Source: Clostridia bacterium
Lineage (GTDB): Bacteria > Bacillota > Clostridia > Christensenellales > Borkfalkiaceae
Length of the DNA stretch: 64,000 bases
Assembly (NCBI GenBank): GCA_017507005.1
Contig: JAFWBT010000019.1
Span: forward strand, 13,900-77,899
Direction: 5' to 3'
Part shown: positions 15,743-61,430 of the stretch, in pieces
How positions within the stretch are numbered: the stretch's first letter is position 1
Layout of the letters: each line of letters opens with the position of its first letter
Made by a program: the position numbers and the translations under genes
The notes under the pieces: generated by a model
What the model saw: the letters and a program-made list of their open reading frames with translations, nothing else
The model's database searches: none
Told to the model about the DNA's origin: nothing

Positions 15743-15760
15743 AAAAAATATCCCCTTTCC

Positions 15761-18940: not shown

Positions 18941-18977
18941 ACCCGACGGATGCCCCTATCCGTCGGGTTTCGTTTTT
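18941..18977 (+). terminator. Rubrerythrin terminator
   Basis: ACCCGACGGA / TCCGTCGGGT 10-bp stem followed by TTCGTTTTT. Confidence 0.7.
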
Positions 18978-19070
18978 GATTTTTCATCTTAAAAACGGCG
19001 TGTAAAAAGGCAAGCAAAAACGGCGTCACCTCGTACATGGGTGCGCCGTTTTGATTTTTTAAGCGTTTGA

Positions 19071-19394
19071 TTACAGATTTTTTTCTACGAATTTTTCCAA
19101 CGCTTCCGCAGGCACAAAACCGAGGTTATTATCCACGGGCGCGCCGTTTTTAAACGCGATAACGTTCGGGATAGAAGTGATGCCGTATTTCACAGCCGCC
19201 GCCTCGCTATCCTCCTCATCAACGTCAATCTTCACGAAAATCGCTTTTCCCTCGTATTTATCGGAAATTTCCTCATACACAGGCGCGAGCATTCTGCAAG
19301 GTCCGCACCAAGTCGCCCAAAAATCACAGAACACCGTCTTATCCGACGTCGCAATGAGTTCTTCCAAATCCTTACCGTTTACGTATTTAACCAT
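19071..19394 (-). CDS. trxA: Thioredoxin
   Basis: WATWCGPCRMLAP active site, 107 aa. Confidence 0.92.
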   Translation of the reverse strand: MVKYVNGKDLEELIATSDKTVFCDFWATWCGPCRMLAPVYEEISDKYEGKAIFVKIDVDEEDSEAAAVKYGITSIPNVIAFKNGAPVDNNLGFVPAEALEKFVEKNL

Positions 19395-19436
19395 ACATTT
19401 TTCCTCCTTTAAAAGGTCCTTTTCTAAAAGTTTGTC

Positions 19437-20699: not shown

Positions 20700-22007
20700 T
20701 TATAAAACGTATTTTTTCAAATTGCGATCACCCGTCAGCTTTTGCAGGTGCTCGTCCACGTATTTGCTGTCGATATTTAAGGTGAACATAGGATAATCCC
20801 CACCGGCGTTAAAGGAAATATCTTCCAACAGATATTCCATCACCGTATGCAACCGACGCGCGCCGATATCCTCGGACGTGAGGTTCAGCTCCACCGCCAC
20901 CTCCGCAATGCGCTCAATCGCGCCACGGTCGAATTGCAACTGAATATTATCCACTTCTAACAGTTTCCCGTATTGGAAAGTGAGCGAATTTTCCGTTTCC
21001 GTCAGGATACGCACAAAATCCTCTTTCGTAAGGCTGTTCAGCTCCACAGATACGGGGAAACGCCCTTGCAGCTCGGGAATCAAATCCTCAATCGCCGCCA
21101 CGTGGAACGCACCCGCCGCAATAAAGAGGATAAAGTCCGTCTTTACAGGCCCGTATTTCGTCACCACCGTGCTACCCTCGACGATAGGCAGGATATCCCT
21201 TTGCACGCCCTCGCGCGAAACGTCCGCGCCGCCGTGATTGTTCTTCCCTGCAATCTTATCGATTTCGTCAATGAACACGATACCGTCGTTTTCCGCGCGG
21301 TACACCGCCTCTTCCTTAATCGCGTCGTCGTCTACAAGCTTTGCCGATTCCTCTTCCAGCGCAATTTGGAACGCTTCGCGCACCGAAAAACGGCGTTTCT
21401 TTTTCTTTTGCTGGAACATATCGCCAAAAATACTGCCGATAGAAATCGCCGCACCGCCCGGCACCAACTCCATAGGCTGCGGCGCGTCCAACACTTCCAT
21501 TTCAATCATGAAATTGTCGTACTGACCTTTCCGCAAACCGTCCAAAAGATTCGCCTCGAACACTTCTTTCGCCGTGTCCCCTTTCTCTTCCTTTTTTGCC
21601 TCCGCGAGTGCGTGCACAATCCGCTTTTCCGCGGCAACGGTCGCTTTCGAGCGCACTTCTTCTTCCTTTTCCGCCTTTACCAGACGATAAGCGCACTCTG
21701 CAAGGTCGCGAATCATACCCTCGACGTCTTTACCAACGTAGCCGACCTCGGTGCATTTCGTCGCCTCCACCTTTACGAACGGCGCTTTTACGAGCTTTGC
21801 AAGTCGTCTTGCAATCTCCGTTTTACCAACGCCCGTAGGGCCTTTCATAATGATATTTTTCGGCGTGATTTCCTCACGGATTTCCGCAGGCAACTGCGCG
21901 CGGCGATAACGGTTTCTTAAAGCAATCGCCACCGCTTTTTTCGCGTCGTCCTGCCCGATAATGTATTTGTCCAGCCGATTGACGATTTGTTTGGGGGATA
22001 AATCCAT
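20700..22007 (-). CDS. hslU: ATP-dependent protease ATPase subunit HslU
   Basis: LDKYIIGQDDAKKAVAIALRNR, GPTGVGKTEIARRLA, IVFIDEIDKI. Confidence 0.95.
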   Translation of the reverse strand: MDLSPKQIVNRLDKYIIGQDDAKKAVAIALRNRYRRAQLPAEIREEITPKNIIMKGPTGVGKTEIARRLAKLVKAPFVKVEATKCTEVGYVGKDVEGMIRDLAECAYRLVKAEKEEEVRSKATVAAEKRIVHALAEAKKEEKGDTAKEVFEANLLDGLRKGQYDNFMIEMEVLDAPQPMELVPGGAAISIGSIFGDMFQQKKKKRRFSVREAFQIALEEESAKLVDDDAIKEEAVYRAENDGIVFIDEIDKIAGKNNHGGADVSREGVQRDILPIVEGSTVVTKYGPVKTDFILFIAAGAFHVAAIEDLIPELQGRFPVSVELNSLTKEDFVRILTETENSLTFQYGKLLEVDNIQLQFDRGAIERIAEVAVELNLTSEDIGARRLHTVMEYLLEDISFNAGGDYPMFTLNIDSKYVDEHLQKLTGDRNLKKYVL

Positions 22008-22010
22008 TTT

Positions 22011-22631
22011 TTAGTCCTCCTTCGCCTTTTTACGGCTCGTTTTCTTTATTGTTTTTTCCTCGTTCATAGGGGGCATGGTCGCGTTCACGACATTTTCGCC
22101 CACCACTTCACAACGAATATTATCGTTGGTGAATACGCATATCTCCGAGGCAATTTTCAACGCTTTTTTCGCAATCGTTTCCGCGTCGTAGTCCGTTTCC
22201 TGATACAGCGCACGCGCCGCCGCTAAGGCGTAATTGCCACCGCTGCCGATAGCGCAAACACCCTCGTCCGGCTCAATCACTTCGCCCGTACCCGACAAAA
22301 TCAACAGCGTGTTTTCATCTGCCGTAATCATCATAGCGTCCAGCTTTCTAGGCACTTTGTCGTTTCTCCAAAGTTCGGCAAGCTCCACGGCAGAGCGCAT
22401 AAGATTGCCGCCGAATTTATTCAGCATACCCTCAAAACGTTCGGTGAGCGCAAACGCGTCCGTCACCGAGCCTGCAAAGCCTAAAATGACTTTGCCACCA
22501 AAAATGCGGCGCACTTTCACCGCAGTATTTTTAAAAATAACCGATTCGCCCATCGTCACCTGACCGTCGCCGGCAATCGCCGTCACGCCGTTCTTTTTCA
22601 CCGCGCAAATCGTCGTTCCTCTAAATTCCAT
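22011..22631 (-). CDS. hslV: ATP-dependent protease subunit HslV with a Lys-rich C-terminal tail
   Basis: [11 protein letters not shown]...GDGQVT after a short propeptide, AGGAG RBS before the ATG at 22631. About 30 extra C-terminal residues ending [11 protein letters not shown]. Confidence 0.9.
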
Positions 22632-22664
22632 ATATACTCCTATTCCCACGCTAAAACGTAGGGT

Positions 22665-23972
22665 TTATTTCATTTCCTCAATGCAAGCAAGCGCGCGTTC
22701 CGCCAAAGCGCGATAGCGTTCCTTTTTGTCCTTGATACGCACGGGCAACGACGAAAGGATACCAAAATTCGCGTTCATAGGCTGAAAATCCTTGACGGGC
22801 GTGGAAATATGCGTTTCCAAAGCGCCGCAAACGGTGCGTTCATCAAATACATGGGTGCCTCGTCCGAGGATTTCGTCCGTGATATGAATCGCCGCCAACA
22901 GTCCGCTCGCCGCGCTCTCCACATACCCTTCAACGCCCGTAATTTGACCTGCAAAGAAGACGTTCTTATTATTCTTACACGAAAAATCGCGATTTAAAAC
23001 GTCAGGCGATTGAATATACGTATTTCTATGCATCACGCCATAGCGTAAATAGTCGGCGTTTTTTAGCGCAGGAATCATAGAAAACACCCGCTTTTGTTCA
23101 GGGAATTTCAAATTCGTCTGAAAGCCGACGAGGTTGTACGTCGTGCCCTCTTCGTTTTCTTTTCTAAGCTGCAACACCGCGTACGGACGCTTGCCGTCCT
23201 CGTCCGCTAAGCCCACGGGCTTTAACGTGCCGTAACGCAGGGTGTCCCTGCCGCGCGACGCCATCACCTCGATAGGCATACACCCCTCGAAGATTTCACC
23301 CTTTTCAAACTCGTGCAATTCCACACGCTCCGCCGCGAGCAACGCGTCTACAAAGGCGTAATATTCCTCTTTGTTCATAGGGCAGTTGATATAGTCCCCC
23401 GTGCCCTTGCCGTAACGGTCGCCCGTGAACGCGGACGTCATATCCACGCTTTCCGCCAATACGATGGGCGCGGACGCGTCGTAAAAATGCAAGCCGCCGC
23501 CCGTTTTTTGCAAAATGTCCTCGCTGAGCGACTCCGTCGTGAGCGGCCCCGTAGCGATAATCAAATACCTGCCCCCCTCCTTTTCAATTTCAGGGATACT
23601 TTTCACTTCTTCGTTGACAAGGGTAAGATTAGGGCAATTTTGTAATTTTTCCGTGATATACGCCGAAAATTTTTCCCGATCGACCGCCAAAGCCGCGCCT
23701 GCCGGCACCTTCGTTGCATCCGCCGCCTCGATAATCATCGAGCCAAGCTTACGCATTTCCTCTTTCAACAATCCGCAAGCGTTCGCGTATACGTCGTTGC
23801 TTTTGAGCGAGTTGGAACACACCAACTCGCCGTAATTCGCGCTCTCGTGCGCAGGGGTAAATTTTTTCGGTTTCATCTCCACGAGGGTGGTCTTAATCCC
23901 GTGCGAAGCGAGATAATACGCCGCCTCACTACCGGCAAGCCCACCGCCGATTACGATCACTTCTTTTTCCAT
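22665..23972 (-). CDS. trmFO: Methylenetetrahydrofolate--tRNA-(uracil-5)-methyltransferase TrmFO
   Basis: VIGGGLAGSEAA FAD motif, ELVCSNS, GQITGVEGYVESAASG. Confidence 0.95.
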   Translation of the reverse strand: MEKEVIVIGGGLAGSEAAYYLASHGIKTTLVEMKPKKFTPAHESANYGELVCSNSLKSNDVYANACGLLKEEMRKLGSMIIEAADATKVPAGAALAVDREKFSAYITEKLQNCPNLTLVNEEVKSIPEIEKEGGRYLIIATGPLTTESLSEDILQKTGGGLHFYDASAPIVLAESVDMTSAFTGDRYGKGTGDYINCPMNKEEYYAFVDALLAAERVELHEFEKGEIFEGCMPIEVMASRGRDTLRYGTLKPVGLADEDGKRPYAVLQLRKENEEGTTYNLVGFQTNLKFPEQKRVFSMIPALKNADYLRYGVMHRNTYIQSPDVLNRDFSCKNNKNVFFAGQITGVEGYVESAASGLLAAIHITDEILGRGTHVFDERTVCGALETHISTPVKDFQPMNANFGILSSLPVRIKDKKERYRALAERALACIEEMK

Positions 23973-24032
23973 TATCCTTTTCCTCTGCGCTTTCCGCCTT
24001 AAAAAACTGCTGTTAACGCCTTGGATACCGTC

Positions 24033-26372
24033 TTATTCCACGTCGTCAAAATCGAAATACTGCGGTTCGTCCATAAGAGGCGGGGGTGCAAATTCGTCGT
24101 CCGTCACGGGCGTCACTTTTTTTGTCTTGTCCGTCTTTTCCGTCTTGGGTTTTTCCGTCTTGATTTTGTACGAACAATCTTTATTGCTGCACTTCACGTT
24201 GCCACGCGCCGTCTGCACGAGCGCGCTCTGACAATCGGGACACTTATCCCCCGTCGGCACGTCCCAGCTCATAAATTTACAATCAGGATAGCCCAAACAG
24301 CTGTAATACACCTTACCTTTTTTCGATTTCCGCACCGTCATAGCCGAGCCGCATTCAGGGCATTTGCCTGCCAATTTTGGCTCTTCATCCGAGGGCATCG
24401 ACATTGTCGATTTACAGTCGGGATAGCTCGGACAAGCCAAGAATCTACCGAATTTACCGCTCTTTACCACCATATTTTCGCCGCATTTCGGGCAACGCAC
24501 CGCAGAGATTTCTTCCTTGGTTTCGCTGATGATATTCTGACATTCGGGATAGTTGGAACAAGCGAGATATTTCCCAAATTTCCCCATACGACGGAGCATA
24601 AAATGTCCGCACTTGCCGCACTCGATTTCCGTTCTCTCGTCGCCGTAAGAGGACGCCAAACGCAGGTTTTTCTCAAATCCGGGATAGAAATCCCCGATTA
24701 CCGCGCGCCAATCCGTGCCGCCGTCTTCAATATCGTCGAGACGGTTTTCCATGCCCGCCGTAAACCCAACGTCCATAACGTCGATAAAGCATTTCACGAG
24801 CATATCCACAACGTCGTACGCAATGGGCGTAGGTATCATATATTTGCCGTCCTTTTTTACGTATTTTTGCATCAATTTAGAAATAATCGTTGCATACGTA
24901 GACGGTCTGCCAATCCCCTTTTCTTCCATCGCTTTAACGAGCGACGCGTCCGTATACCGAAGCGGAGGTTTGGTGAATTTTTGTTCCTTTTGCATGGACA
25001 CGAGATCGAGTACGTCGCCCTCGTTCAAATCGGGCAACAGCTTTGCCGAGCTGATTTCGTCCTCGTCCTCTTTCTTTGCGTTCGCCGCGTCTTGATACAC
25101 CGCCGTAAAGCCTGCAAACAGCAACACTTTACCGCTCGCCTTAAACACGTAGCCGCTGTTGTCGATTTCCATTTGCATACTGTTGTATCTCGCCTCCGAC
25201 ATCTGCGATGCAAGGAAACGTTCATACACCAGCTTATACAGCGAATAGTGCTTTTTATCCAGCAATTTTTTTGCCTTTTCGGGCGTCATGGAAATATCGT
25301 TGGGACGGATCGCTTCGTGCGCGTCCTGCGCGCCTTTTTTAGAAGCGTAATAGTTGGGCTTTTCAGGCGCGTATTCTTCGCCGTACACCTCGCGGATACG
25401 CTCTAACGCCTTCGCCTGCGCCTCTTTGGACACGCGGACGGAGTCCGTACGCATGTACGTGATGAACGCAATATGGTCTCCGTTTTCCGTTTCAATACCT
25501 TCGTAAAGATGCTGTGCCAGCGTCATAGTTTCGGGCGCGGTAAAGCCGAGCTTCGTCGAAGCGTCCTGCTGTAAAGAGCTGGTCGTAAAGGGCGCGGGCG
25601 CGTGCGATTTCGCAATCGTCTTTTTCACCTTGGAAACGACGAATTTACCCTGCTCGATAGCAGCGAGCACCTGCGCGGTTTCTTCTGCGGATGCAGGCTT
25701 GTATTTCTTCGCGCCTTTCTTTTCAAGCATTGCCTTGAACGACGCGTATTTTTTGGGAATATCCTGCAATTCCGCCGTCAAATTCCAGTATTCTTCGGGC
25801 ACGAACGCCGTGATTTCACGTTCTCTTTCCACGACCAAACGCAACGCAACCGACTGCACTCTGCCGCCCGAAAGCGTACGCTTGCCGTTGCCGTTTTTAT
25901 CCTCGATTTTATGATTTAACAGCGTAGAGAGCTTATAGCCCACCAATCTGTCCAACACACGGCGCGCCTGCTGTGCGTCCACGAGGCTGTAATTGATTTG
26001 ACGGGGCGTCTTTAACGCCGCCTCAATCGCGCGTTGGGATACTTCGTTAAACTCGATACGGTTTTGCCCTGCCTCGTCCAAACCGAGCACCGTTTGCAAA
26101 TGCCAAGCAATCGCCTCACCTTCGCGGTCAGGGTCGGTTGCGAGATAAACACGATCGGCTTTTTTCGTCGCGTCTACCAAACGTCTAATAACGTCCTCTT
26201 TCCCTTCGGAATTGACGTACTTTGGCTCGAAATTGTTCTTCACGTCCACGCCGAGCGTATGCACGGGCAAATCGCGGATATGCCCTGCTGACGCGTCCAC
26301 ACGGTATTGCCCTTTGAGATACTTGGAGATGGTTTTCGCCTTGGAAGGCGACTCTACGATAATTAAATCCAT
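24033..26372 (-). CDS. topA: DNA topoisomerase I
   Basis: TOPRIM domain (LIIVESPSKAKTI, LATDPDREGE), active-site region ITYMRTDS, and several C-terminal CxxC zinc ribbons. Confidence 0.95.
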   Translation of the reverse strand: MDLIIVESPSKAKTISKYLKGQYRVDASAGHIRDLPVHTLGVDVKNNFEPKYVNSEGKEDVIRRLVDATKKADRVYLATDPDREGEAIAWHLQTVLGLDEAGQNRIEFNEVSQRAIEAALKTPRQINYSLVDAQQARRVLDRLVGYKLSTLLNHKIEDKNGNGKRTLSGGRVQSVALRLVVEREREITAFVPEEYWNLTAELQDIPKKYASFKAMLEKKGAKKYKPASAEETAQVLAAIEQGKFVVSKVKKTIAKSHAPAPFTTSSLQQDASTKLGFTAPETMTLAQHLYEGIETENGDHIAFITYMRTDSVRVSKEAQAKALERIREVYGEEYAPEKPNYYASKKGAQDAHEAIRPNDISMTPEKAKKLLDKKHYSLYKLVYERFLASQMSEARYNSMQMEIDNSGYVFKASGKVLLFAGFTAVYQDAANAKKEDEDEISSAKLLPDLNEGDVLDLVSMQKEQKFTKPPLRYTDASLVKAMEEKGIGRPSTYATIISKLMQKYVKKDGKYMIPTPIAYDVVDMLVKCFIDVMDVGFTAGMENRLDDIEDGGTDWRAVIGDFYPGFEKNLRLASSYGDERTEIECGKCGHFMLRRMGKFGKYLACSNYPECQNIISETKEEISAVRCPKCGENMVVKSGKFGRFLACPSYPDCKSTMSMPSDEEPKLAGKCPECGSAMTVRKSKKGKVYYSCLGYPDCKFMSWDVPTGDKCPDCQSALVQTARGNVKCSNKDCSYKIKTEKPKTEKTDKTKKVTPVTDDEFAPPPLMDEPQYFDFDDVE

Positions 26373-26480
26373 GCTATATTCCTTAAAAATATATTTTTTC
26401 TTTTTTACTGATTTTTGGGGCTGTCTTACAAAGGCTTTACCCTTGCGCCTTGCAAGAAACTATGTTTCTTGGCTTCCCTT

Positions 26481-27356
26481 TTATAGGGCTTTATAGCAGT
26501 TGCCGCCCAAGGCAACGACCAAGCCTTTTACTTCCAGCGCCGACAACAACGCGCGCGCCTTGAACGCAGGTACGCCCGACGCCGACGATAGCTCGCTCAC
26601 GTGTGCCTCTGCTTTGTCTTTTAACGCTACGTACAGCTTTTCCTCGTCCGCCGATAATACCACCGCCGCTTTCGTTTGCGTGCGTTCTACGCCGTATTTT
26701 TTCAGTACGTCCGTCGCGTTTTCCGTCAGATACGCGCCCTCTTTCAATAACGCGTTACAGCCCTCGCCCGCCGACGAGCCAGGCGCGTACGGCAATGCAA
26801 ACAAGGGAATATCAAAGGCTTTGGCGTGCTTTGCCGTAATCAACGCGCCGCTTTTTTGCGCCGCGCCCAACACCAACACCCCTACGCCAAGTTTTGCCAA
26901 TAATTTATTGCGGTATTCGTACGAGAACGCGCGCACGGTTGCGTCGAACTCGTGCGGGGAAAGCAACAAACCGTTTTCCGCCACGCGCTGTAAAAGGGAC
27001 AAATTCCCCTGCGGCATGGACGAGAAACCGCCTGCCAAAAGACAAATCACTCTACCGCCGCTACGTAGCGCACCCTCGATAGCCGCGCTGTCGCCGCCGT
27101 CTGCCGTACCCGTTGTAATCACGAACGTGTCCGACAAATCGCTCGCTATCTGCGCGCCGAGCTTTAACGCGTACGCAGGTGTCCTGCGCGAACCCACGAT
27201 AACGAATTTTCTGCCGTGTAAAAGGGAGATATCCCCCACGGCGTACAGCGTTTCGGGCGCGTCTTTAACGTCCAGCCACTCGGCAGGGTAATCCGCCGCG
27301 CCGCGCGGGATTGCGGCCATAGCGTTTTTTAATTGTGCCGTGGATAAAAACTGCAA
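26481..27356 (-). CDS. dprA: DNA processing protein DprA (Smf)
   Basis: VGSRRTPAYALK, TGTADGGDSAAIEGAL, and a C-terminal winged-helix-like tail. Located upstream of topA, as is usual in Firmicutes. Confidence 0.85.
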   Translation of the reverse strand: MQFLSTAQLKNAMAAIPRGAADYPAEWLDVKDAPETLYAVGDISLLHGRKFVIVGSRRTPAYALKLGAQIASDLSDTFVITTGTADGGDSAAIEGALRSGGRVICLLAGGFSSMPQGNLSLLQRVAENGLLLSPHEFDATVRAFSYEYRNKLLAKLGVGVLVLGAAQKSGALITAKHAKAFDIPLFALPYAPGSSAGEGCNALLKEGAYLTENATDVLKKYGVERTQTKAAVVLSADEEKLYVALKDKAEAHVSELSSASGVPAFKARALLSALEVKGLVVALGGNCYKAL

Positions 27357-27366
27357 TTTCGCTCCT

Positions 27367-27630
27367 TTATTTTAAAAGCAAAAAGATCAAAAGACCAATC
27401 TGCCACAAAACGCCCAACACGTTTACAACGTGGAAATACCAATGTTTGGTTTTATGCCGCGCCACGTGCATCGCCACGATACCGCCCACCGCGCCGCCCA
27501 AAAACGACATACCGAGCAGTGCCTTTTCACTCACACGCCAACGCCCTTTTTTTGCCTTACGTTTGTCCGCAAGATAAGTAAAAAACGTTATCACGGACGC
27601 CACCGCAAGATAGATAGCGTAATAATACAT
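27367..27630 (-). CDS. DUF1294-family small membrane protein
   Basis: DKRKAKKGRWRVSEKALL...GGAVGG...ARHKTKH pattern. Confidence 0.7.
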   Translation of the reverse strand: MYYYAIYLAVASVITFFTYLADKRKAKKGRWRVSEKALLGMSFLGGAVGGIVAMHVARHKTKHWYFHVVNVLGVLWQIGLLIFLLLK

Positions 27631-27642
27631 ACTACAATCCTT

Positions 27643-29232
27643 TTATTCAATATCCCCCAGCTCTGCGCCGTAGGTGCGATAGGAAATCGCCTCGTACAAA
27701 TGGTCGGGCTGGATATTTTCCGATAAATCCAAATCGGCAATCGTCCGCGCCACTTTCAAAATTCTCGACCGCGCACGCGCCGATAAATGCAAACTTTCAA
27801 ACGCCTCGCGCAAAACGTCCTCGCATTGCTTGCTCAAACGGCAATATTCGCGCGTTTCTTTCTCGCCCATTTCCGCGTTCGTCTTTACCCTGCTCCCCTC
27901 AAACCGCTCACGCTGTATCTTTCTCGCGCTGTCCGCGCGCTGTTTCACCACCGCACTGCTCTCCTCCACCGTTTCGGCAACCAGCGCGTCGTATTCCACG
28001 CCGTCCACTTCCACTTGGATATCGATACGGTCGAGCAGCGGCCCTGAAATCTTCGCGCGATACCGCCGAATATCGTTGGGCGTACACGTACAACGGCGTT
28101 TTTTACTGCCGTAATGTCCGCAGGGACAAGGATTCATACTCGCGCACAGCATAAAGGACGCGGGATAGGTCACCGTGCCGCCCGAACGGGAAATGGTGAT
28201 AACGCCGTCCTCCAAGGGCTGACGGAGCGCTTCGAGCGCCGAACGCTTGTATTCGGGCAATTCGTCCAAAAACAATACGCCGCCGTGCGAAAGACTAATT
28301 TCGCCAGGATGCACCGATTTATTACCGCCGCCGCATAAGGAAACGGTGGTCGCCGTATGATGAGGACTGCGGAACGGACGTTCCGTCACGATTCCGTCCT
28401 CGCCCAAAGTACCTGCTACCGAGTGTATTTTCGTAATTTCAAGCGCCTCGTCAAACGCCATATCGGGCATTACGGAGGGTATCGAACGGGCAAGCATCGT
28501 CTTGCCGCTCCCCGGAGGGCCTACGAACAGAATATTGTGTCCACCTGCCACCGCCACTTCCACGGCGCGTTTTGCCATATCCTGACCTTTAACAAACGCC
28601 AAATCGTACGCGCTCTTGCTCGCCTCTGCTTTTGCGGCAAAGGATGCCACGGGTACGATGGGCATGGGCGCAAAACCCGACAAATGGTCGACGACTTCGC
28701 GAAGATTTTTCGCTGCGTACACCGCTACGCCGTCGATATACCCTGCCTCTTTTTCGTTGTCCTTGGGAATAATGAATTTTTTATAGCCCTTATCGCGCGC
28801 GGAAATAATCGAGGGCAACACGCCCGTCACGGGGCGCAAATCGCCGTTCAAGGCAAGCTCGCCTAAAAACACCATACCCTCTACGTCCGCCTCTAAAACG
28901 CCGTAGGCAAGGAGCAAACTAATCGCCACGGGCAAATCGAAAGACGAGCCTTCCTTTTTCACGTACGCAGGCGCGAGATTGATTGTAATTCTGTGCGCGG
29001 GGAAATCGAGCGCGCTGTTTTTCACGGCGCTCTTGACGCGTTCTTTGGATTCTTTCACCGCGGTATCGGGCAACCCTACCATCTCGTAAGACGGCAAGCC
29101 CTTCGACACGTCCGCCTCCACCGTGACAGGCACGCCTTCAAGACCGGACAACGCGTAGCTTTGCACCCTTGCAATCACACTCTTTTCCTCCGTACGTATT
29201 TTTAGGATTTTTGCCGCTATATTTATCGGCAA
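27643..29232 (-). CDS. comM: YifB/ComM-family Mg-chelatase-like AAA+ ATPase
   Basis: GPPGSGKTMLA, VLFLDELPE, and a CxCxxxxxC segment. The true start may be the GTG at 29178 (GGAGG upstream). Confidence 0.9.
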   Translation of the reverse strand: MPINIAAKILKIRTEEKSVIARVQSYALSGLEGVPVTVEADVSKGLPSYEMVGLPDTAVKESKERVKSAVKNSALDFPAHRITINLAPAYVKKEGSSFDLPVAISLLLAYGVLEADVEGMVFLGELALNGDLRPVTGVLPSIISARDKGYKKFIIPKDNEKEAGYIDGVAVYAAKNLREVVDHLSGFAPMPIVPVASFAAKAEASKSAYDLAFVKGQDMAKRAVEVAVAGGHNILFVGPPGSGKTMLARSIPSVMPDMAFDEALEITKIHSVAGTLGEDGIVTERPFRSPHHTATTVSLCGGGNKSVHPGEISLSHGGVLFLDELPEYKRSALEALRQPLEDGVITISRSGGTVTYPASFMLCASMNPCPCGHYGSKKRRCTCTPNDIRRYRAKISGPLLDRIDIQVEVDGVEYDALVAETVEESSAVVKQRADSARKIQRERFEGSRVKTNAEMGEKETREYCRLSKQCEDVLREAFESLHLSARARSRILKVARTIADLDLSENIQPDHLYEAISYRTYGAELGDIE

Positions 29233-29339
29233 AAGGCAATTTTTCCCTACCTTATATATATGCCCTTATTATTGTACCCTAAAAAAGACAAAAAGTAAAC
29301 CGAATTTTATATATTTTTTTACGGAAAAGGAATTTTTTA

Positions 29340-30130
29340 TAATGTGAGTAAATATCCCCCACTAAAGTGGGGGCTTTATTTTGCGCACTAAAGTGCGTGA
29401 ATACTGGCGCAGGCGTCCCAACGCCATCTTAACTCGCCTACTGCACACAAGCAAGCGGTAATTTATTTTTTCTTATTCCGATTTGATTCCAACCATTTTT
29501 TGAACGGGTCGTATATTCCACCATACTTATTTGGTTGGATATCAAATCTTCTGTTTCTTGGTGTTGGATATACTTCTGTACCGCTTGCTTGTTAGCACCT
29601 ACGGTGCTTACGTAATATCCGCGACTCCAAAAGTGCCTATTCCCTATTTTGTACTTCATGTGAGCATATCGCTCGAAGATTATCATTGTACTCTTACCCT
29701 TGAGATACCCCATAAACGATGATACTTTCTCATTCGGCGGTATGCTCACTAACATATGTATGTGGTCGGGCATTGCGTGAGCTTCTATGATTTCCACTTC
29801 CTTACGTTGACATAGTTCTCTCAATATTTTCCCAATATCTTCACGCAATGCCCCATAAATTATTTTTCTATGGTATTTTGGCGTGAACACGATATGATAT
29901 TGACATTTCCATGTCGTATGTGCTAAACTGTATGTATCGTTATTTTGATTTTTCAATTTTAACATCCTCCTTTGTGCTTACTTGTGTACGGTTGCGAGCC
30001 TTACATACAGTTTAGCATAGAGGAGCTTTTTTGTATAGCAAATGATAGGCTTGAAGCTAAAGCTATTTGCCACCAGCATAGCTGGTGGTTTCTGACAACC
30101 GCGAGTTCCCACTCGCGGTTGTTGCTGTAT
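29340..30130 (-). mobile_element. IS200-type insertion sequence (IS200/IS605 family, tnpA only)
   Basis: Y1 transposase gene flanked by subterminal hairpins. These are CCCCCACTAAAGTGGGGG and GCGCACTAAAGTGCG on the 3' side, and CCACCAGCATAGCTGGTGG and CAACCGCGAGTTCCCACTCGCGGTTG on the 5' side. Exact ends not determined. Confidence 0.75.
29438..29965 (-). CDS. tnpA: IS200/IS605-family Y1 transposase TnpA
   Basis: YHIVFTPKYHRK and MPDHIHMLVSIPP (HUH motif), with the catalytic Tyr region RGYYVSTVG. Confidence 0.9.
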   Translation of the reverse strand: MLKLKNQNNDTYSLAHTTWKCQYHIVFTPKYHRKIIYGALREDIGKILRELCQRKEVEIIEAHAMPDHIHMLVSIPPNEKVSSFMGYLKGKSTMIIFERYAHMKYKIGNRHFWSRGYYVSTVGANKQAVQKYIQHQETEDLISNQISMVEYTTRSKNGWNQIGIRKNKLPLACVQ

Positions 30131-36225: not shown

Positions 36226-37272
36226 TTACACCACTGCGTCCTTTAACACGACGGTAAACGCACTGCCCTTGCCCTCTTCACTTTGCACGGAAATCTCACC
36301 GCCTAAAACGTCGATGACTTTTTTCACGAGCGCAAGCCCCAGCCCGTTTCCTTCTTTTGCGTGCGAGGTGTCCCCTTGATAAAATTTATCAAAGATATGC
36401 TTCCCCGTTTCCGCGGAAATTCCACAGCCGTTATCCTCTACGCAAACGACGGCGTTTTTACCCTCTTTTTTACACGTCAACGCAACCCTGCCCCCCTCGT
36501 TTGTGAATTTTATCGCGTTGGAAAGCAGGTTGGAAAAAACAATTTCTAAATAACTTTTCGACGAATACACCTCCATTTCGTCGAGGGACACGTCGAGCGT
36601 CAACGCCTTTTTTTCAATCAGTTCTTCCAAGGCGATTACGCGCTCTGCCAAGCACTCGTCCAAGCTAAATTTGGACAGCTCAGGTAAGAGTTTTTGATTT
36701 TCCAGCTTGTTGAGTTTTAAGATATTCGTGACGAGGTCGCTCAGGCGTTTGGACGCCTGCACGAGGATATCGCAATATTTTTTCCGCAATTCCTCATCCA
36801 AATCTTCCTTTTTCAACAGCTCGGCATAGCTGTGGATAATGGACAACGGCGTTTTCAATTCATGCGAGACATTGGAGATAAAATCACTCTTTAACACTTC
36901 CGATTTCCGCAGCTCCGCCGCCATTAGGTTGATATTTTCCTTGATTTCGTCGTACTGGTCGTAATTTTCATAATGGTGCTCCGTTTGCAAGCGCACCGAA
37001 AAGTCCCCTGCCGCGATGCGCTCGGTTGCCGACAAAATCTGTTCGGTGGGCTTGTCCACCGTGATACGCCGACGAATTACGTCCGCTATCGTGAATATGA
37101 TTGCCAAAAACACGACGACGAGCAACATCACGAGCGCAATTGTGCCAAGCGACGCGCCTCGCTGTTCCAACCGCCCGTACGCGAACAAGGCAAACGTTAC
37201 CGACACCGCACTGGTGAGCAAAAATAATAAAAATCCCGTCGCCACCGTCATCACTGCATTCTTGCGTTTCAT
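36226..37272 (-). CDS. Sensor histidine kinase
   Basis: Two N-terminal TM helices, H-box SHELKTPL, N box SNAIKFT, G boxes DNGCGI and GNGLGL. Confidence 0.9.
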   Translation of the reverse strand: MKRKNAVMTVATGFLLFLLTSAVSVTFALFAYGRLEQRGASLGTIALVMLLVVVFLAIIFTIADVIRRRITVDKPTEQILSATERIAAGDFSVRLQTEHHYENYDQYDEIKENINLMAAELRKSEVLKSDFISNVSHELKTPLSIIHSYAELLKKEDLDEELRKKYCDILVQASKRLSDLVTNILKLNKLENQKLLPELSKFSLDECLAERVIALEELIEKKALTLDVSLDEMEVYSSKSYLEIVFSNLLSNAIKFTNEGGRVALTCKKEGKNAVVCVEDNGCGISAETGKHIFDKFYQGDTSHAKEGNGLGLALVKKVIDVLGGEISVQSEEGKGSAFTVVLKDAVV

Positions 37273-37940: not shown

Positions 37941-38148
37941 GACTTTACCTGCCCTTTCGTCCTTTCTACTATTATTTATACCACGTTACTGTTGAAAAAT
38001 CGTTGAGAATTTGTTAAATTTTTGTAAAAGTACGCGTTTTTTATGTCCTTCCCGCTGATAACAACGCTATTGAACGTCAACGACGGAGAAAATCGTCGAT
38101 AACGGAAAGAAACGCCCCGAAGTCAACTCGGAGCGTTTTTCCATACGT

Positions 38149-40008: not shown

Positions 40009-41081
40009 ACGTCTATTCTCAATTGTTCGTCTTGTTTGGTGTCCTTTAACGCACCAAGGCATTGTCTAAACGCCGTCGGCAGGGATACCGTTTCCGTAAT
40101 CTCCCCCACCGTGTACGCGTCGAACGGCGCTACGTCCGTTTTTACCCACACACAGGTCATATTCCAACGGATATGGGTGAAAATATGGGTGTATTTTTGC
40201 CGTTTTACCTCGGTGAACTCGTACATGCCCCACTCGTTTAAGATATTTTCCGCCGTTTCGCCGTTTTTTATAACGTGCGAGGGAAATTCGTTCATACCCT
40301 TCAAAACACCCTCTTCGCGGCGTCTAATACAAAACCCTTGCGGCGTTTCGATTAGGAATACGAATACGTCCTCGTTTCTCTTGGGCGGCTTTTGCGGCAG
40401 AACGGGGAAATCCCTTTGCGTGCCGTGTAAATACGCGCCGCACAGCTCTTTTAACGGGCACACCGCACATTCAGGCGATTGCGGCTTGCAAAGCAACGCG
40501 CCCACTTCAAAAAGGCTCTGCGTAAACGCCGAACAAGCCTCTTTGGTGTTTGGGTACACCGCCGAGAGTTCTTTTTCAAGATATTTACGATAAGAGGGGT
40601 CGGAAATCACCGTCGGGTTTTCTTCCAAGCGCGCCGCAACGCGGAAAACGTTGCCGTCCACCGCCGCCGTCGGCTGACCGAACGCAATCGACGCGATTGC
40701 GCCTGCCGTATAGCTGCCGATACCGGGGAGTTTTTTCAATAGCGCGATATCTTGCGGAAATTCCCCGCCGTACTCGTTGACGAGGATTTTTGCCGTCTTT
40801 TGCATATTTCGCACACGGCTATAATACCCCAGCCCTTCCCACAGCTTTAACAGTTTTTCTTCTGCACAGACTGCCAAATCCTCCACTGTCGGGAGAGCGG
40901 ACATAAACCGCGCGTAGTATTCTTTCACCGCTTCCACACGCGTTTGCTGTAACATAATTTCGGACACCCACACCCGATACGGCGTTGGATTTTCTCGCCA
41001 AGGCAAGTCGCGTTTATGCTGTTGATACCACGAAAGCAAGGGGGCAGGTATGCGTTGAAAGGAAAATTCACTCTTTTTCAT
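40005..41081 (-). CDS. mutY: A/G-specific adenine DNA glycosylase MutY
   Basis: PYRVWVSEIMLQQTRVE, HhH-GPD (LPGIGSYTAGAI), a 4Cys cluster (C..C..C.....C), and a C-terminal NUDIX-like domain. Start at the ATG at 41081 with AGGAG upstream. Confidence 0.9.
   Translation of the reverse strand: MKKSEFSFQRIPAPLLSWYQQHKRDLPWRENPTPYRVWVSEIMLQQTRVEAVKEYYARFMSALPTVEDLAVCAEEKLLKLWEGLGYYSRVRNMQKTAKILVNEYGGEFPQDIALLKKLPGIGSYTAGAIASIAFGQPTAAVDGNVFRVAARLEENPTVISDPSYRKYLEKELSAVYPNTKEACSAFTQSLFEVGALLCKPQSPECAVCPLKELCGAYLHGTQRDFPVLPQKPPKRNEDVFVFLIETPQGFCIRRREEGVLKGMNEFPSHVIKNGETAENILNEWGMYEFTEVKRQKYTHIFTHIRWNMTCVWVKTDVAPFDAYTVGEITETVSLPTAFRQCLGALKDTKQDEQLRIDV
41040..41059 (+). repeat. Dispersed repeat family, copy c inside the mutY N-terminus (antisense to the gene)
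   Basis: GGGGGCAGGTATGCGTTGAA. 19 nt identical to copy b. Supplies codons for FQRIPAP. Confidence 0.8.
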
Positions 41082-44540: not shown

Positions 44541-44609
44541 TACGTTTTGTTAGCGGTATTCGGCTACGAATACTATCGCGACGCAAACGTTATGAGCGAA
44601 ACAGGATTT

Positions 44610-44646
44610 CACCCACGAGCTATTTGGCGCGATGGGTGTTTTTTTG
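44610..44646 (+). terminator. Riboswitch expression-platform terminator
   Basis: CACCCA...TGGGTG hairpin followed by T7. CACCCAC can alternatively pair with GTGGGTG of the aptamer 5' side. Confidence 0.5.
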
Positions 44647-44693
44647 TCGTAAAACCGATAAAAAACGCAGCGGCGGTACAAAAGGAGGTTTTT

Positions 44694-45392
44694 ATGTTTC
44701 TCTTTTCCCTTTTGGAAGTCAGCGAAAAGGCGACTAACGTCGTCAAATGGATTTCCGTTGCCGCCGTGGTGTTATTGCTCGGCGTAATCGCCCTACTCGG
44801 GCTGACGAACAAAAAAAGCTTTGACGGGCGCAGACTCGCCTTTGCAGGCATTTGCGTCGCTATGTCGTTCGTCTTGGCTATGATTAAGGTGAAACCCGTT
44901 CAATACGGCGGCTCTATCACCCTCGCGTCGTTTGTTCCCGTGCTTATCTACGCCTATGCGTACGGACCGATTGACGGGCTGATTGTCGGGCTGGTGCACG
45001 GCTTGCTCAATTTCATTGAATCGCCGTACATTTTAACGCCCGCCACCTTCGTTCTCGATTATCTGTTGCCCTTTGCCAGCGTTGCGCTGATGGGCTTTTT
45101 CGGAAAATCCCAGAAAAACGAAAAATCGGTGCTGCCCGTACTTTTGGGTTGTATTTGCGTTTTTGGCGCAAGATTTTTCTTCCACTTATTATCGGGTACT
45201 ATCTTTTTCTTGCAGGACGCCGTGTGGGTATCCTTCCCCGATTGGGCAACGCAAAACGCCTTTATCTATTCTTTCATTTATCAATGTGTCTACGTCCCCG
45301 CAGACGCGCTCATCGCGACCATGGTATTGCTCTTTTTCAAAAAGTCGGGCGTTTTAGACCGCCTCGTCGATTTGATGAAACGCAAAAAATAA
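44694..45392 (+). CDS. thiT: ECF-type thiamine transporter S component (ThiT-like)
   Basis: AAAGGAGG RBS. Six-TM protein resembling ThiT (YLLPFASVALMGFFGK...FFFHLLSGTIFF). The ORF-track extension to 44547 covers the riboswitch platform. Confidence 0.75.
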   Translation: MFLFSLLEVSEKATNVVKWISVAAVVLLLGVIALLGLTNKKSFDGRRLAFAGICVAMSFVLAMIKVKPVQYGGSITLASFVPVLIYAYAYGPIDGLIVGLVHGLLNFIESPYILTPATFVLDYLLPFASVALMGFFGKSQKNEKSVLPVLLGCICVFGARFFFHLLSGTIFFLQDAVWVSFPDWATQNAFIYSFIYQCVYVPADALIATMVLLFFKKSGVLDRLVDLMKRKK

Positions 45393-46030: not shown

Positions 46031-46075
46031 GGGCAGAAAAACGCGTTCAACGCATACCTGCCCTCGTCGTTTTTT
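46031..46075 (-). repeat. Dispersed repeat family, copy d (intergenic, between the KH gene and rimM)
   Basis: Minus strand AAAAAACGACGAGGGCAGGTATGCGTTGAACGCGTTTTTCTGCCC. GGGCAG and CTGCCC form a perfect 6-bp closing stem. Confidence 0.9.
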
Positions 46076-46142
46076 AAAATGGCAAAAAAAGGCTTTGTTA
46101 AAAAAGCCTTTTTTGTTTTTCGGTTTTTGCGGTGTTACGCAA

Positions 46143-48780: not shown

Positions 48781-50088
48781 TTATAAAATGAAATGCAAAA
48801 CGTCGACGAGGATTGCAAACCCGAACAGCGCGATAATCCCGATAAAGTGAATCATTGTTTCCACCTTGCGATTGACGGGCTTTTTCCGTATCCACTCGAT
48901 AATGCAGAAAATCACCTTACAGCCGTCGAGGGCAGGGATAGGCAACAAATTAAACACGGCGAGGTTTACGCCGATAAACGCGGCAATATTGAGGAAGGAA
49001 TACACGCTCATCGTTGCCGCCTGCGACGTCACTTGTATCGTCGTAACGGGGCCGCCCATTGACGTAATCGCCATTTTACCCGTCAACAGCTCGCCCAAGC
49101 TACGCAGCACCGTGCCACCGATTTTCCACGAATACACGAACGCCGAGCCTATCGTATCGAAAAAGCTTTCCTTTACCAAAATGCCGCCGAACACGTAGTT
49201 TTGCGAATCCAAGCCAAGCGCCTGATAAGCAGGGGCAAGGTCGGTCATATTCTTAAAATTGCAATCGACGGAAAGAACGATATCCAACGTTTTCGTCTGC
49301 CAACCGTTTTCCTCTTTCCGCAAGATTTCCACGCGCACGCTTTCGCCTGCTTTTTTACCCGACAGGATATCCACGTAATCAGTGGACATATAGATATCTT
49401 TATCGTTGATAGAAAGGACGATATCGTTCGCCGAAAGCATCGTTTCCGACGTAATCGGCGGCGCGCCCTCGCCTACGTACGCCACGTACGAGTGGATACT
49501 GCCGTAACAGCCGAACATAATCAAAAGCAACAACAGCGCTAAAAGATAGTTCATCGTCGCGCCCGCAATCAATACGATAATGCGTTTCCAAGGCGGCTGA
49601 TCGTTAAAACGCTCGCCTTTCGGCTCGGGATATTCCGTCTCTTCTTTTTTTGTTTTTTTCTCGTGTTCTTTGCTCGCGTCCACAGCGACGTTTTCATCGT
49701 TCGTCGCGGACATGCCCCCGTCGTTTTGCGTTTTTTCGTTCGCATTAGGGTATTCGGAAAACGGCTCTTCCTCGTCCGTTTCTTCTTCCTTTTTTACGGC
49801 ATTTTCGTCCGTTTCGTCCTCGTATTCGTCCTCGCCGTCAAAGGCGCAATAGCCGCCCAAAGGAATACAGCGCAAAGCGAACAATTCGCCCGTTTTCTTA
49901 CTGCGTTTTTTAAAAATCGCAGGCCCGAAACCAACGGCAAATTCGTTGATTTTAAAACCGAGCGCTTTGCCTGCGACGTAATGCCCAAATTCGTGTATCG
50001 TTACCATAGCGAGCAATATCGCCACGGCAAGCACGATGCCGCCTATGCTCCGTAATATTCCCGATGCTAATATATTCGTCAAAACCAA
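48781..50088 (-). CDS. rseP: RIP site-2 metalloprotease RseP/RasP with a long acidic loop insertion
   Basis: HEFGHY, PDZ-like middle, C-terminal NLLPIPALDG. Roughly 75-aa Asp/Glu/Lys-rich segment after IPLGGY. Confidence 0.9.
   Translation of the reverse strand: MVLTNILASGILRSIGGIVLAVAILLAMVTIHEFGHYVAGKALGFKINEFAVGFGPAIFKKRSKKTGELFALRCIPLGGYCAFDGEDEYEDETDENAVKKEEETDEEEPFSEYPNANEKTQNDGGMSATNDENVAVDASKEHEKKTKKEETEYPEPKGERFNDQPPWKRIIVLIAGATMNYLLALLLLLIMFGCYGSIHSYVAYVGEGAPPITSETMLSANDIVLSINDKDIYMSTDYVDILSGKKAGESVRVEILRKEENGWQTKTLDIVLSVDCNFKNMTDLAPAYQALGLDSQNYVFGGILVKESFFDTIGSAFVYSWKIGGTVLRSLGELLTGKMAITSMGGPVTTIQVTSQAATMSVYSFLNIAAFIGVNLAVFNLLPIPALDGCKVIFCIIEWIRKKPVNRKVETMIHFIGIIALFGFAILVDVLHFIL
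49691..49736 (-). repeat. Dispersed repeat family, full-length in-frame copy inside rseP
   Basis: Minus strand AAAACGACGGGGGCATGTCCGCGACGAACGATGAAAA. The 5' arm matches copy d at 15 of 17 positions and the core matches the permease copy at 16 of 17. Encodes QNDGGMSATNDEN. Confidence 0.75.
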
Positions 50089-52460: not shown

Positions 52461-52510
52461 GGAAGAAAACGCCGTCAACGCAGACATGCCCCTTCCATTT
52501 CTCGTTTTTT
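52461..52510 (-). repeat. Dispersed repeat family, copy e (starts at the uppS stop codon)
   Basis: Minus strand TAAAAAAACGAGAAATGGAAGGGGCATGTCTGCGTTGACGGCGTTTTCTTCC. GGAAG and CTTCC can close a stem. Confidence 0.85.
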
Positions 52511-53232
52511 TATAATTGTTCGTCCGTTTTTCCAAAACGACGCGTGCGCTTGGAAAACCACAAAATTGCCCTGTCAAGCTCCTTATCCGAAAAATCGGGA
52601 AACATTTTCTCGGAAAAATACAGCTCGGCATACGCCGCTTGATACAACAAAAAGTTTGAAAGGCGCACCTCTTTGCCCGTACGGATAATGAGGTCGGGAT
52701 CTGGCTGACCGCTTGTATACAGCAAAGCCGACAAACCGTTCTCGTCCACCTTTTCGCCCTTTTCCACGGCAATATTCACCGCCCGAACAAGCTCGTCACG
52801 CGCACCGTAGCACACCGCGACGTTGATGCCCTTGCCCTCGTATTGCAGCGTCGATTCTTCCGCTTCGTGTAAAATTTGTTGCAAATCCTCAGGCAATAAG
52901 GAGATATCACCGATTGCGCGGAGCCGCACTCCTCTCTCGCACACCCGTCCAAAATACTGTTTGAAATGGTTGCGAAAGAGATTGAACAAGCCGTCTAGCT
53001 CCTCTTTCGGGCGTTTGAGATTTTCGGTGGAGAGCGCGTAGACGGTGATATATTCCACACCCAGCTCGAAAGCGCGCTCCATCAGCCCTATCATACGCTC
53101 CATGCCCATTTTATGGCCGTAGGAGCGGGGCATCATACGTTTTTTCGCCCAACGCCCGTTCCCGTCCATAATGATTGCGATATGGCGGGGAATTTTACCC
53201 TCCGCTTTTTTAATGAGAGCCTCTTTTTGCAT
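52510..53232 (-). CDS. uppS: Isoprenyl transferase (undecaprenyl diphosphate synthase)
   Basis: HIAIIMDGNGRWA, YALSTENLKRP, RTGKEVRLSNFLLYQAAYAELYF. Confidence 0.95.
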   Translation of the reverse strand: MQKEALIKKAEGKIPRHIAIIMDGNGRWAKKRMMPRSYGHKMGMERMIGLMERAFELGVEYITVYALSTENLKRPKEELDGLFNLFRNHFKQYFGRVCERGVRLRAIGDISLLPEDLQQILHEAEESTLQYEGKGINVAVCYGARDELVRAVNIAVEKGEKVDENGLSALLYTSGQPDPDLIIRTGKEVRLSNFLLYQAAYAELYFSEKMFPDFSDKELDRAILWFSKRTRRFGKTDEQL

Positions 53233-54945: not shown

Positions 54946-54990
54946 AAAACGCGTTCAACGCAGACATGGTAGCCCCATTTTACGTTTTTT
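54946..54990 (-). repeat. Dispersed repeat family, copy f (between the uvrA stop and its terminator)
   Basis: Minus strand AAAAAAACGTAAAATGGGGCTACCATGTCTGCGTTGAACGCGTTTT. Confidence 0.9.
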
Positions 54991-54996
54991 TGTTCG

Positions 54997-60337: not shown

Positions 60338-60400
60338 TTTTCAACGCGTACACGGTAGCCTCGTTCTTAATTCAACGCATACCTGCCCTATCCGTTTTCA
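60338..60400 (-). repeat. Dispersed repeat family, two tandem copies (g1, g2) abutting an RBS
   Basis: Minus strand AAAACGGATAGGGCAGGTATGCGTTGAA TTAAGAACGA GGCTACCGTGTACGCGTTGAA AAGGAGGGGGA ATG. Confidence 0.85.
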
Positions 60401-60587: not shown

Positions 60588-61430
60588 ATGCCGGCTTTTT
60601 ACGCGCATAAACGTTTCGGCGAGGCGGTAATCGCAACCCTGCCCCCTGCGTTTCAAGAAAATATCCAAAAATATATCGACGCTTTTCGGCTGGGCACGCA
60701 AGGGCCTGATATCCTGTTTTATCACCACCCTATCCGCGCCAATGCCGTGCGGCAAAAGGGCGTTGATTTACACCACCAAAGCGCGGAAGAATTTTTTCTC
60801 ACCCAAGCGCAACGTCTGTTAGAGAGCGACCACGTAAAAGAGCAGGACGGTAATTTAGTGCCTGCATCCGCTTACGCGACGTATATCGCAGGATTTATCT
60901 GTCATTTCACGTTGGACGTTTTCGTGCATCCGCACGTATACGAACGGCAAGCGACAGGCGTATCCCACGGGAAAATTGAATCGGAATTTGATAAATATAT
61001 TTTCCGCAAGGACAATCTGCCTATACGTGGCCATCACGTCGCCAAACAGCTGACAATAGAAAACGGCACGGATACCGCTTGCGCCCTTGCCTTGGACGTC
61101 AGCGCGGATGAGGCGCAGCTCGCGATAAAGACTATGCGAAAAATCAACGAGATGTTTGCCTGCAAGTGCGAGGCTTTTCACGCGCTCGCGCACGCAATAT
61201 TAAAGATTGCGAAAATGGACGAAAAATTCGGGGATATGTTCCTGCATAAAAAGGACGATCCTCGTTGTGACGATTTAAACCCCGTCCTCTATCAAGACCT
61301 CGAGGCGGCGATTCCAAAAGCGGCGGCATTGATTGAAGACTACTTCACACGCCTCCACGAACACGTTGAAAAAGGAAAACTCGACGAGTTTTTCCGTCAT
61401 ATGTATACAGGAGAAAAATGTCATGACTGA
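60588..61430 (+). CDS. Zinc-dependent phospholipase C-like family protein
   Basis: MPAFYAHKRFG... with several His-rich metal-site-like motifs (FYHHP, DLHH, HPH). AAAGGAGG RBS before the ATG at 60588. Confidence 0.6.
   Translation: MPAFYAHKRFGEAVIATLPPAFQENIQKYIDAFRLGTQGPDILFYHHPIRANAVRQKGVDLHHQSAEEFFLTQAQRLLESDHVKEQDGNLVPASAYATYIAGFICHFTLDVFVHPHVYERQATGVSHGKIESEFDKYIFRKDNLPIRGHHVAKQLTIENGTDTACALALDVSADEAQLAIKTMRKINEMFACKCEAFHALAHAILKIAKMDEKFGDMFLHKKDDPRCDDLNPVLYQDLEAAIPKAAALIEDYFTRLHEHVEKGKLDEFFRHMYTGEKCHD

Follow-up and report, generated by a model that had tools for sequence, protein, structure and literature searches.

We find that a DNA word of about 30-45 nt, built on the core GGGGCAGGTATGCGTTGAACGC behind short A-tracts, recurs in the window (by which we mean the whole 64,000-nt stretch of Clostridia bacterium DNA that was analyzed), and that its core is also present, among the matches listed, in dozens of gut MAGs that each represent a species. 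The word is sharply defined, has not been described before and marks a gut clade about which little is known; it belongs among the genome-wide DNA signal words. Judged by sequence comparison, the constraint that keeps it acts on the DNA, and the word is neither a mobile insertion nor primarily an RNA element. By analogy we tentatively favor, at somewhat less than an even chance, the reading that it is a lineage-specific recognition word in double-stranded DNA that may work like the USS and DUS uptake signals. In a searchable literature of 8 million papers the string GGGCAGGTATGCG was not found, and literature searches gave no description of the motif.

The unit is asymmetric: a weak A/T tract is followed by AAA-n-G-a-n-GG, and this in turn by GGGCAGGTATGCGTTGAAC(GC). 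A logo made from 93 copies from related genomes and a second, less biased set (n = 33) agree on this unit, placing the weak A/T tract at -19 to -13, AAA at -9 to -7 (67-88% of copies), G at -5 and GG at -2/-1, followed by the 19-nt core and then a G. The conserved stretch of the core is 19-22 nt, and its 3′ part is the 11-nt palindrome GCGTTGAACGC. The sequence-only reading had described two sub-types, a palindrome and inverted ends. The sub-types, AGGTATGCG and ATGTCTGCG, of which the second may or may not carry TACC, are genuine and occur in the window as well as in other genomes, and GCGTTGAACGC is indeed palindromic, but the inverted ends AAAACG...CGTTTT are present in only three copies.

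Copies were counted on both strands with the 19-mer core GGGCAGGTATGCGTTGAAC. At 0, 1, 2, 3, 4 and 5 mismatches the window holds 2, 3, 1, 0, 3 and 10 matches, where a third-order Markov model of the window expects 0, 0, 0, 0.02, 0.21 and 1.64; at four or fewer mismatches this amounts to 9 matches against 0.23 expected. The dispersed family of 30-45 nt units that had been proposed is thus genuine, and the comparison with a Markov expectation that had been suggested as a check gave, for the window, a count far above the expected one. The 27-mer first used to describe the family matches only twice at three or fewer mismatches and the shorter 19-mer core recurs, which shows that the family is looser than that string. 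Once the flanks are considered there are about 16 copies in the window, 9 of the 16 in coding sequence. In the curated set 14 of 16 lie on the minus strand, a count that replaces the earlier one of 9 in 13; the minus strand is the G-rich leading strand by GC skew and carries 50 of 63 crude gene calls. In the window and the related loci together, the density is about 1 per 4-8 kb, and near-perfect copies occur once per 10-20 kb. The copies are, with their mismatches to the core:

1022-1076, minus strand: intergenic copy, core 1042-1060, 1 mismatch, between the stop of a permease-like gene (1089) and yajC
1813-1850, minus strand: coding copy of the TACCATGTCTGCG sub-type in a 540-aa permease-like ORF
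12386-12432, plus strand: intergenic copy, core 12412-12430, 0 mismatches; the stop codon of the AAA ATPase gene is 6 nt away
13562-13606, minus strand: coding copy in the YhaN-like AAA ATPase, at its linker; core 13564-13582, 2 mismatches, both A-tracts present
14720-14738, minus strand: marginal copy with 4 mismatches, in the sequence that codes for the SbcD-like C-terminus
16822-16844, plus strand: marginal copy, 5 mismatches, antisense in cls
23556-23586, minus strand: degenerate coding copy in trmFO, AAAAGGAGGGGGGCAGGTAT...
36475-36505, minus strand: degenerate coding copy, 4 mismatches, with the correct AAACGAGGGG flank, in a histidine kinase gene
40212-40240, minus strand: doubtful copy, 5 mismatches, in mutY
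41033-41060, plus strand: antisense copy at the mutY N-terminus, core 41042-41060, 1 mismatch; the gene strand reads FQRIPAP
46031-46079, minus strand: the intergenic copy originally flagged, core 46045-46063, 0 mismatches, with a GGGCAG/CTGCCC stem
49691-49737, minus strand: coding copy in the RseP linker, of the GGGCATGTC sub-type; two A-tracts
52461-52512, minus strand: intergenic copy, core 52473-52491, 4 mismatches, with a GGAAG/CTTCC stem
54946-54992, minus strand: intergenic copy of the TACCATGTCTGCG sub-type, 5 nt past the uvrA stop (54999-54997), without a significant hairpin
60338-60400, minus strand: intergenic copy, core 60370-60388, 1 mismatch, plus a partial second copy at 60338-60366; no hairpin
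60626-60656, minus strand: degenerate antisense copy, 5 mismatches, with the correct flank, at the N-terminus of a plus-strand phospholipase-C-like gene

Most of the copies reported from the letters alone were recovered, namely those at 1029-1061, 1813-1844, 12401-12432, 13562-13603, 41040-41059, 46031-46075, 49691-49736, 52461-52510, 54946-54990 and the pair 60338-60366 / 60371-60400, and the sequence of the flagged copy at 46031-46075, which reads AAAAAACGACGAGGGCAGGTATGCGTTGAACGCGTTTTTCTGCCC on the minus strand, is as it had been given. The one at 16822-16844 is weak, at 5 mismatches; 40103-40130 is a loose resemblance only, and 37945-37955 is an 11-nt match that is not significant by itself. 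Five copies had been missed, at 23556-23574, 36475-36493, 60626-60644, 14720-14738 and 40212-40230, of which the last is doubtful since its orthologues vary at synonymous sites, so that conservation there is probably at the protein level. That two copies start at or near the stop codons of uppS and uvrA is confirmed by the coordinates, and the uppS stop codon (52512-52510) continues straight into the distal A-tract of its copy. The flagged copy is bordered by a terminator hairpin (46085-46114) on one side and by rimM on the other, and an orthologous copy exists in locus L081, and the partial copy at 60338-60366 abuts the ribosome-binding site of the downstream gene. The permease-like ORF is supported by a 532-aa orthologue adjoining an ABC ATPase in L146, and the SbcD-like site at 14720-14738 is also occupied in L144 and L145. 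We also observed the 8-mer GCAGGTAT eight times on the plus strand of the window, where about one is expected; as this exceeds the two or three full plus-strand copies, further short or decayed copies may exist.

Contigs identical to the window were found only in metagenomes. When one genome of each species was scanned for GGGCAKGTMTGCGWYGAAC, at least 117 loci were obtained, 97 of which are of moderate G+C (688 kb in total) and were kept for the counts. Among the matches listed, the moderate-G+C loci come from Ca. Scatosoma and from ‘Clostridia bacterium’ gut MAGs of many species; the other 20 loci are single matches in high-G+C genomes and look like chance. The 97 related loci contain 184 matches at four or fewer mismatches in 688 kb, for which the chance level is about 2.5 when derived from the window's 0.23 per 64 kb. 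Three 22-kb loci that were picked by protein, independently of the motif, from relatives 45-51% identical in that protein, hold 2-5 copies each. Relatives with a MutY 38-58% identical gave no match in 58 kb, and the 2.9 million viral contigs of IMG/VR gave only three matches, all without the flank and at chance level. Over-representation and clade limitation thus hold for the window and for the 8-22-kb loci examined.

The behavior of the word inside genes is what points to the DNA as the level of constraint. Coding sequence holds 96 of the 184 matches in the related loci, with 41 of these 96 antisense, and the two stop-free sense frames are used about equally. The 29-nt sequence AAAATGGACGGGGCAGGTATGCGAYGAACG is found near the C-terminus of Dus in four species, where it is in one frame and read as KWTGQVCDER, and in the window it is found in the linker of an unrelated YhaN-like AAA ATPase, where a different frame reads KMDGAGMRRT (the copy at 13562-13606). 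Antisense copies in verified genes for TatD, an ABC-F ATPase, an S41 peptidase and MutY are read as VQRIPAP or FQRIPAP. A conserved peptide as the cause was considered and rejected on the ground that the same nucleotides are read in different frames and on different strands in unrelated proteins. Orientation follows the replication or skew strand and not transcription, since in the related loci leading-strand genes carry 47 sense and 19 antisense copies and lagging-strand genes 8 sense and 22 antisense copies. The excess on the leading strand noticed by the sequence-only reading is real, at about 72% or roughly 2.6:1 in the related loci, but an excess of 2-3:1 on the G-rich strand is already expected from base composition, and we therefore do not take the strand skew as evidence for a polar function.

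Where this was checked, copies also arise and disappear in place. Dus aligns with a Thermotoga structure across the motif with no gap, neither of the two MutY sites shows an insertion relative to Geobacillus MutY, and the ATPase in the window, at 738 aa, is at the short end of homologues of 730-770 aa. An insertion of MITE or RPE type was looked for and not found in Dus or MutY, where there is no length change and orthologues differ by substitutions, and gain and loss of copies between relatives is by substitution. At the MutY N-terminus 23 nt are identical in three lineages whose proteins share about 71% identity, with differing codons adjacent to the motif, and in a fourth lineage the motif has been lost through four substitutions; the window's copy (41033-41060) has been kept without synonymous change in two of the three orthologues covering the site. 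The degenerate copy at 60626-60656 is absent from the orthologue in L043, again with substitutions only. The RseP copy lies in a linker of about 60 aa that solved homologues are without, which fits tolerance of the word at unconstrained positions, and the TrmFO copy sits in a loop 6 aa longer than that of Thermus TrmFO. Between genes, L043 (about 79% nucleotide identity) retains the intergenic copies 54953 and 60370 amid unalignable spacers; the 60370-60388 core is identical there while its flanks are unalignable, and the copy at 54946-54992 is orthologous but diverged.

ATPase homologues of 41-52% identity share a ‘GAG[TM]RR’ island at precisely the place of the DNA motif, in a basic linker that varies elsewhere, and this alignment suggests that the DNA motif shapes the protein sequence of the ATPase over long times. 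With the recurring peptides VQRIPAP, GQVC[VD]E and GAGMRR, we have a clear case of a DNA-level constraint shaping proteins. The ATPase is one half of a conserved pair, an SbcD-like phosphoesterase and the YhaN-like AAA ATPase (12438-15742, minus strand; L144-L146, ~8920-12270), and in both the window and L144-L146 the ATPase has a central hydrophobic hairpin.

The earlier description of the repeat as REP-like leads to the alternative of a REP/BIME- or MITE-like palindrome spread by a transposase (RAYT or similar), whose half copies, those in genes included, would be decayed or would be in-frame insertions like the RPEs of Rickettsia. The size of 30-45 nt, the imperfect palindromes that many intergenic copies form right after stop codons, and a density like that of E. 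coli REPs are all shared with REP/BIME elements, and the window does contain a Y1-family transposase gene. This gene (29438-29965, minus strand) is the only Y1 gene in the window; its product scores 148 bits against the IS200/IS605 model (cut-off 55) and 42.9 bits against the RAYT model (cut-off 80), resembles the IS608- and ISDra2-type TnpA structures, and belongs to an IS200/IS605-type element (29267-30130) that has its own hairpins (30095-30122, 30070-30088 and 29356-29373), unrelated to the motif. No motif copy at five or fewer mismatches lies within about 2.5 kb of the Y1 gene, a match at about 2.5 kb probably being due to chance, and the nearest curated copy, at 23556, is about 6-6.5 kb off. 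Since the Y1 protein scores as IS200 and fails the RAYT model, and the motif does not flank its gene, the REP/RAYT model is not supported in the window, and for the window the association with a RAYT that had been raised falls away. REP/BIMEs are moreover exclusively extragenic hairpin units served by a RAYT, whereas the unit described here is asymmetric, is half intragenic, in both orientations and without insertion where checked, and is conserved across species also in copies that have no hairpin; a single word kept over dozens of species is likewise unlike typical REP families. The Dus and MutY copies without change in length, the short ATPase and the turnover of copies through substitution also speak against a mobile palindrome, which we regard as improbable. 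The RPEs of Rickettsia resemble the word in being repeats found within genes, but they are 100-150-nt insertions that lengthen proteins, which the motif copies do not, and the word indeed stands outside the named repeats (REP/BIME, ERIC, BOX, RUP, RPE), as had been thought.

Two apparent signs of mobility, a length difference in RseP (417 vs 435 aa) and a contig break at ~51294, were rejected as artefacts of assembly and gene calling. In two metagenome contigs, L001 (8744-8788) and L004 (5011-5044), an identical but unrelated 40-nt tail is found where dxr begins, at ~51294 of the window, and N's follow it in L001; the shared tail is no variant but a scaffolding or assembly artefact, which explains the differing dxr and RseP gene calls. 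The IS element itself sits in a low-G+C stretch (28-36 kb) without a motif copy, and a sub-threshold match to Rfam STnc490 (IS200 leader RNA) was seen at 29963-30090.

Some intergenic copies can form hairpins, as had been proposed: copies 1042, 12412 and 46045 fold well (z of -3.4 to -5.3 against shuffles). Copies 54953 and 60370 fold no better than shuffles (z -0.3 to -0.5), and several well-conserved copies are without a hairpin. At 1022-1076 the head pairs with a degenerate right arm followed by T7 (MFE -20.2 kcal/mol, z = -3.4), and in this folding model the copy looks like a terminator-like hairpin; at 12386-12432 the A-tract and GGGG head form a 13-bp hairpin with 12386-12399, which is the best terminator-like site on the minus strand within 1-20000. 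Overlapping inverted pairs, GGGCAGGTATGCGTTGAACGCATACCTGCCC, make up 16 of 94 strict copies (17%), usually lie between an A-run and a T-run, and have T-rich tails in 14 of the 16 cases; by their sequence the pairs between genes look like bidirectional intrinsic terminators. A role at the RNA level, either as intrinsic terminator or 3′-end stabiliser, or as a translation-initiation cassette in which GGCAGGT would be Shine-Dalgarno-like, ATG-CGT-TGA a mini-ORF and [AT]TG-AAC a start, would account for the hairpins followed by T-runs at gene ends, for the long ORF that begins at the motif's ATG or TTG in L037, L062, L053 and L119, and for the sense-strand location of most copies in the window. 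We nevertheless hold it to be very improbable. As described above, 41 of 96 coding copies are antisense, several of them conserved in verified genes, and this orientation is preferred in lagging-strand genes; copies deep in Dus, the ATPase, TrmFO and RseP can neither terminate nor start anything, several conserved intergenic copies fold no better than shuffles, and the Rfam covariance models gave no match at any copy at the gathering or the E<=1 threshold. As a general role, the initiation cassette or mini-ORF was rejected in view of the conserved antisense and deep intragenic copies. Sigma-54 and ECF promoters were rejected because the spacing is wrong and copies lie inside genes and after stop codons. 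A palindromic copy in L061 (~4104-4135) has a G-to-T variant in both arms (GGGCATGTATGCGTTGAACGCATACATGCCC); that the arms change together would mean either that the hairpin is under selection or that paired copies evolve in concert.

We rank the uptake-signal reading first because a clade-limited word is found in genes and spacers in both orientations, originates in place and is paired in terminators. USS/DUS had been a candidate already in the sequence-only reading, and by this analogy it is now our leading one, although we would not yet call it probable. We suggest that the competence machinery of the clade would prefer to bind or take up DNA bearing the word; through recombination of the fragments, better-matching variants would then accumulate in place by point substitution wherever the protein tolerates them. 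Two intergenic copies that overlap via GCGTTGAACGC would give a perfect hairpin between A- and T-runs, which may have been co-opted as a bidirectional intrinsic terminator. Over-representation, the confinement of the word to one clade, the sense and antisense coding copies that arose in place and the frozen synonymous sites in MutY support this, as do the copies at the RseP linker, the MutY N-terminus, the TrmFO loop and the ATPase linker, and the intergenic copies that stand as islands of identity in unalignable spacers. On the analogy with known systems we infer that DNA uptake would be the agent of selection or drive. In genomes with known USS/DUS, paired uptake sequences often make up terminator hairpins (PMC1852404; PMC13020248), with up to 22-37% of terminators built in this way (PMC13020248), and ORFs contain 34.5-65% of the uptake sequences, with a preference for residues of low conservation (PMC2817400).

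The motif is closely like the USS of Pasteurellaceae (AAGTGCGGT with phased AT tracts), which is likewise an over-represented, clade-specific word in genes and spacers in both orientations, has a G+C-rich core beside A/T tracts about 8-10 nt apart, originates in place at poorly conserved residues and forms terminators as inverted pairs. The DUS of Neisseriaceae (GCCGTCTGAA and dialects) shares the frequent inverted pairs in terminators, the absence from unrelated genomes and the conservation throughout a family with variants, to which the AGGTATGCG and ATGTCTGCG sub-types would correspond. The fit is imperfect, as known USS/DUS words are 9-12 nt long and occur about once per kb, and the motif conserves 19-22 nt at about one per 4-8 kb; it is about 4-10 times sparser than the Pasteurellaceae USS, whose core is 9 nt against about 19-22 nt here, and much longer than the DUS. 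The 3′ part of its core is itself palindromic, unlike the USS, and its strand distribution is skewed to the leading strand, unlike that of the DUS. Its host is a Gram-positive-type Clostridia lineage, again unlike the USS. Sequence-specific uptake is documented in two proteobacterial families only (PMC13020248), and our search of the literature on uptake sequences in Clostridia, Firmicutes or Bacillota found only Pasteurellaceae and Neisseriaceae named. This lack of precedent in a Gram-positive lineage counts against the uptake reading. The competence systems of model Gram-positive bacteria are not known to prefer particular sequences in the DNA that they take up. The narrower proposal, that this is the first DNA uptake signal sequence outside Proteobacteria, a word of about 20 nt with A-tracts by which Ca. 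Scatosoma and relatives favor the DNA of their kin, is on the same analogy possible but leans to the unlikely side.

The window contains dprA and a comM-like gene, to which we give little weight for uptake because both are widespread in non-competent bacteria. They are part of a cluster of a comM-like ATPase gene, dprA, topA, trmFO, hslV and hslU (20700-29232, minus strand), in which dprA is below the TIGR00732 cut-off and passes Pfam DNA_processg_A; the order topA-trmFO-hslVU resembles the Bacillus order.

As the main rival we see a word bound by an abundant chromosomal DNA-binding protein that has nothing to do with uptake, each site being kept by selection; among the candidates are a factor for nucleoid organisation or segregation, a strong gyrase site and a long polar signal of the Chi/KOPS kind. 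By analogy this seems to us rather unlikely. The persistence of individual sites across deep divergence suits it at least as well as it suits the uptake reading, and persistence across proteins of 45-50% identity, in particular, suits another selected function equally or better than uptake. Constraint at the DNA level in both orientations is what such a site would show, and the 11-nt palindromic center would suit a dimer. With Chi, KOPS and SRS the word shares action at the DNA level, tolerance in coding sequence and an excess on the leading strand, which carries 14 of the window's 16 copies and about 72% of those in the related loci; its density of about 1 per 4-5 kb resembles that of E. coli Chi, and its G-rich head (GGGCAGGT/G), GGGCAGG(G/T), resembles the KOPS word GGGNAGGG. 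On the other hand, the known Chi, KOPS and SRS words are only 5-8 nt long, whereas the motif conserves about 20 or more, and a search for a shorter Chi/KOPS-like sub-word found none over-represented beyond the full copies. The skew of Chi and KOPS exceeds composition, whereas that of the motif, at about 2.6:1 in related loci where 2-3:1 is predicted, does not, so that polarity is not clearly selected. Sites of the parS, NBS and matS type are known in tens per genome and not in hundreds, and the frequent inverted pairs at gene ends are left unexplained. HIP1 of cyanobacteria is also a DNA-level word kept in coding sequence across species, but it is an 8-nt palindrome and far denser than the motif.

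If the uptake-signal reading is correct, abundant uncultured gut Clostridia would exchange DNA by transformation with a preference for their own kind, which would matter for how genes flow and strains change in gut microbiomes. Uptake sequences would then no longer be confined, as they long have been, to Pasteurellaceae and Neisseriaceae; sequence-specific transformation in a Gram-positive-type gut lineage would call for a new kind of receptor, for which the word would be a handle, and the word would also be a practical sequence tag for introducing DNA into members of the clade. Whatever its function, the motif is a sharp genomic signature for binning and classifying the clade.

Two further features of the window may be pointed out. 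The segment 44446-44535 (plus strand) is TPP riboswitch-like, at 46.6 bits against a gathering threshold of 54.3 (E = 5.7e-6), and lies directly upstream of a gene for a ThiT/YuaJ-type thiamine transporter (44547-45392); from its sequence it is probably a genuine but divergent TPP riboswitch. In the 820-nt gap (7568-8388) between two ABC-transporter operons, which has no ORF of 90 aa or more and holds a 67-aa ORF at 7758-7961 together with shorter ones, two 74-nt direct repeats (8173-8246 and 8286-8359) with no Rfam match are 99% identical and lie 113 nt apart.
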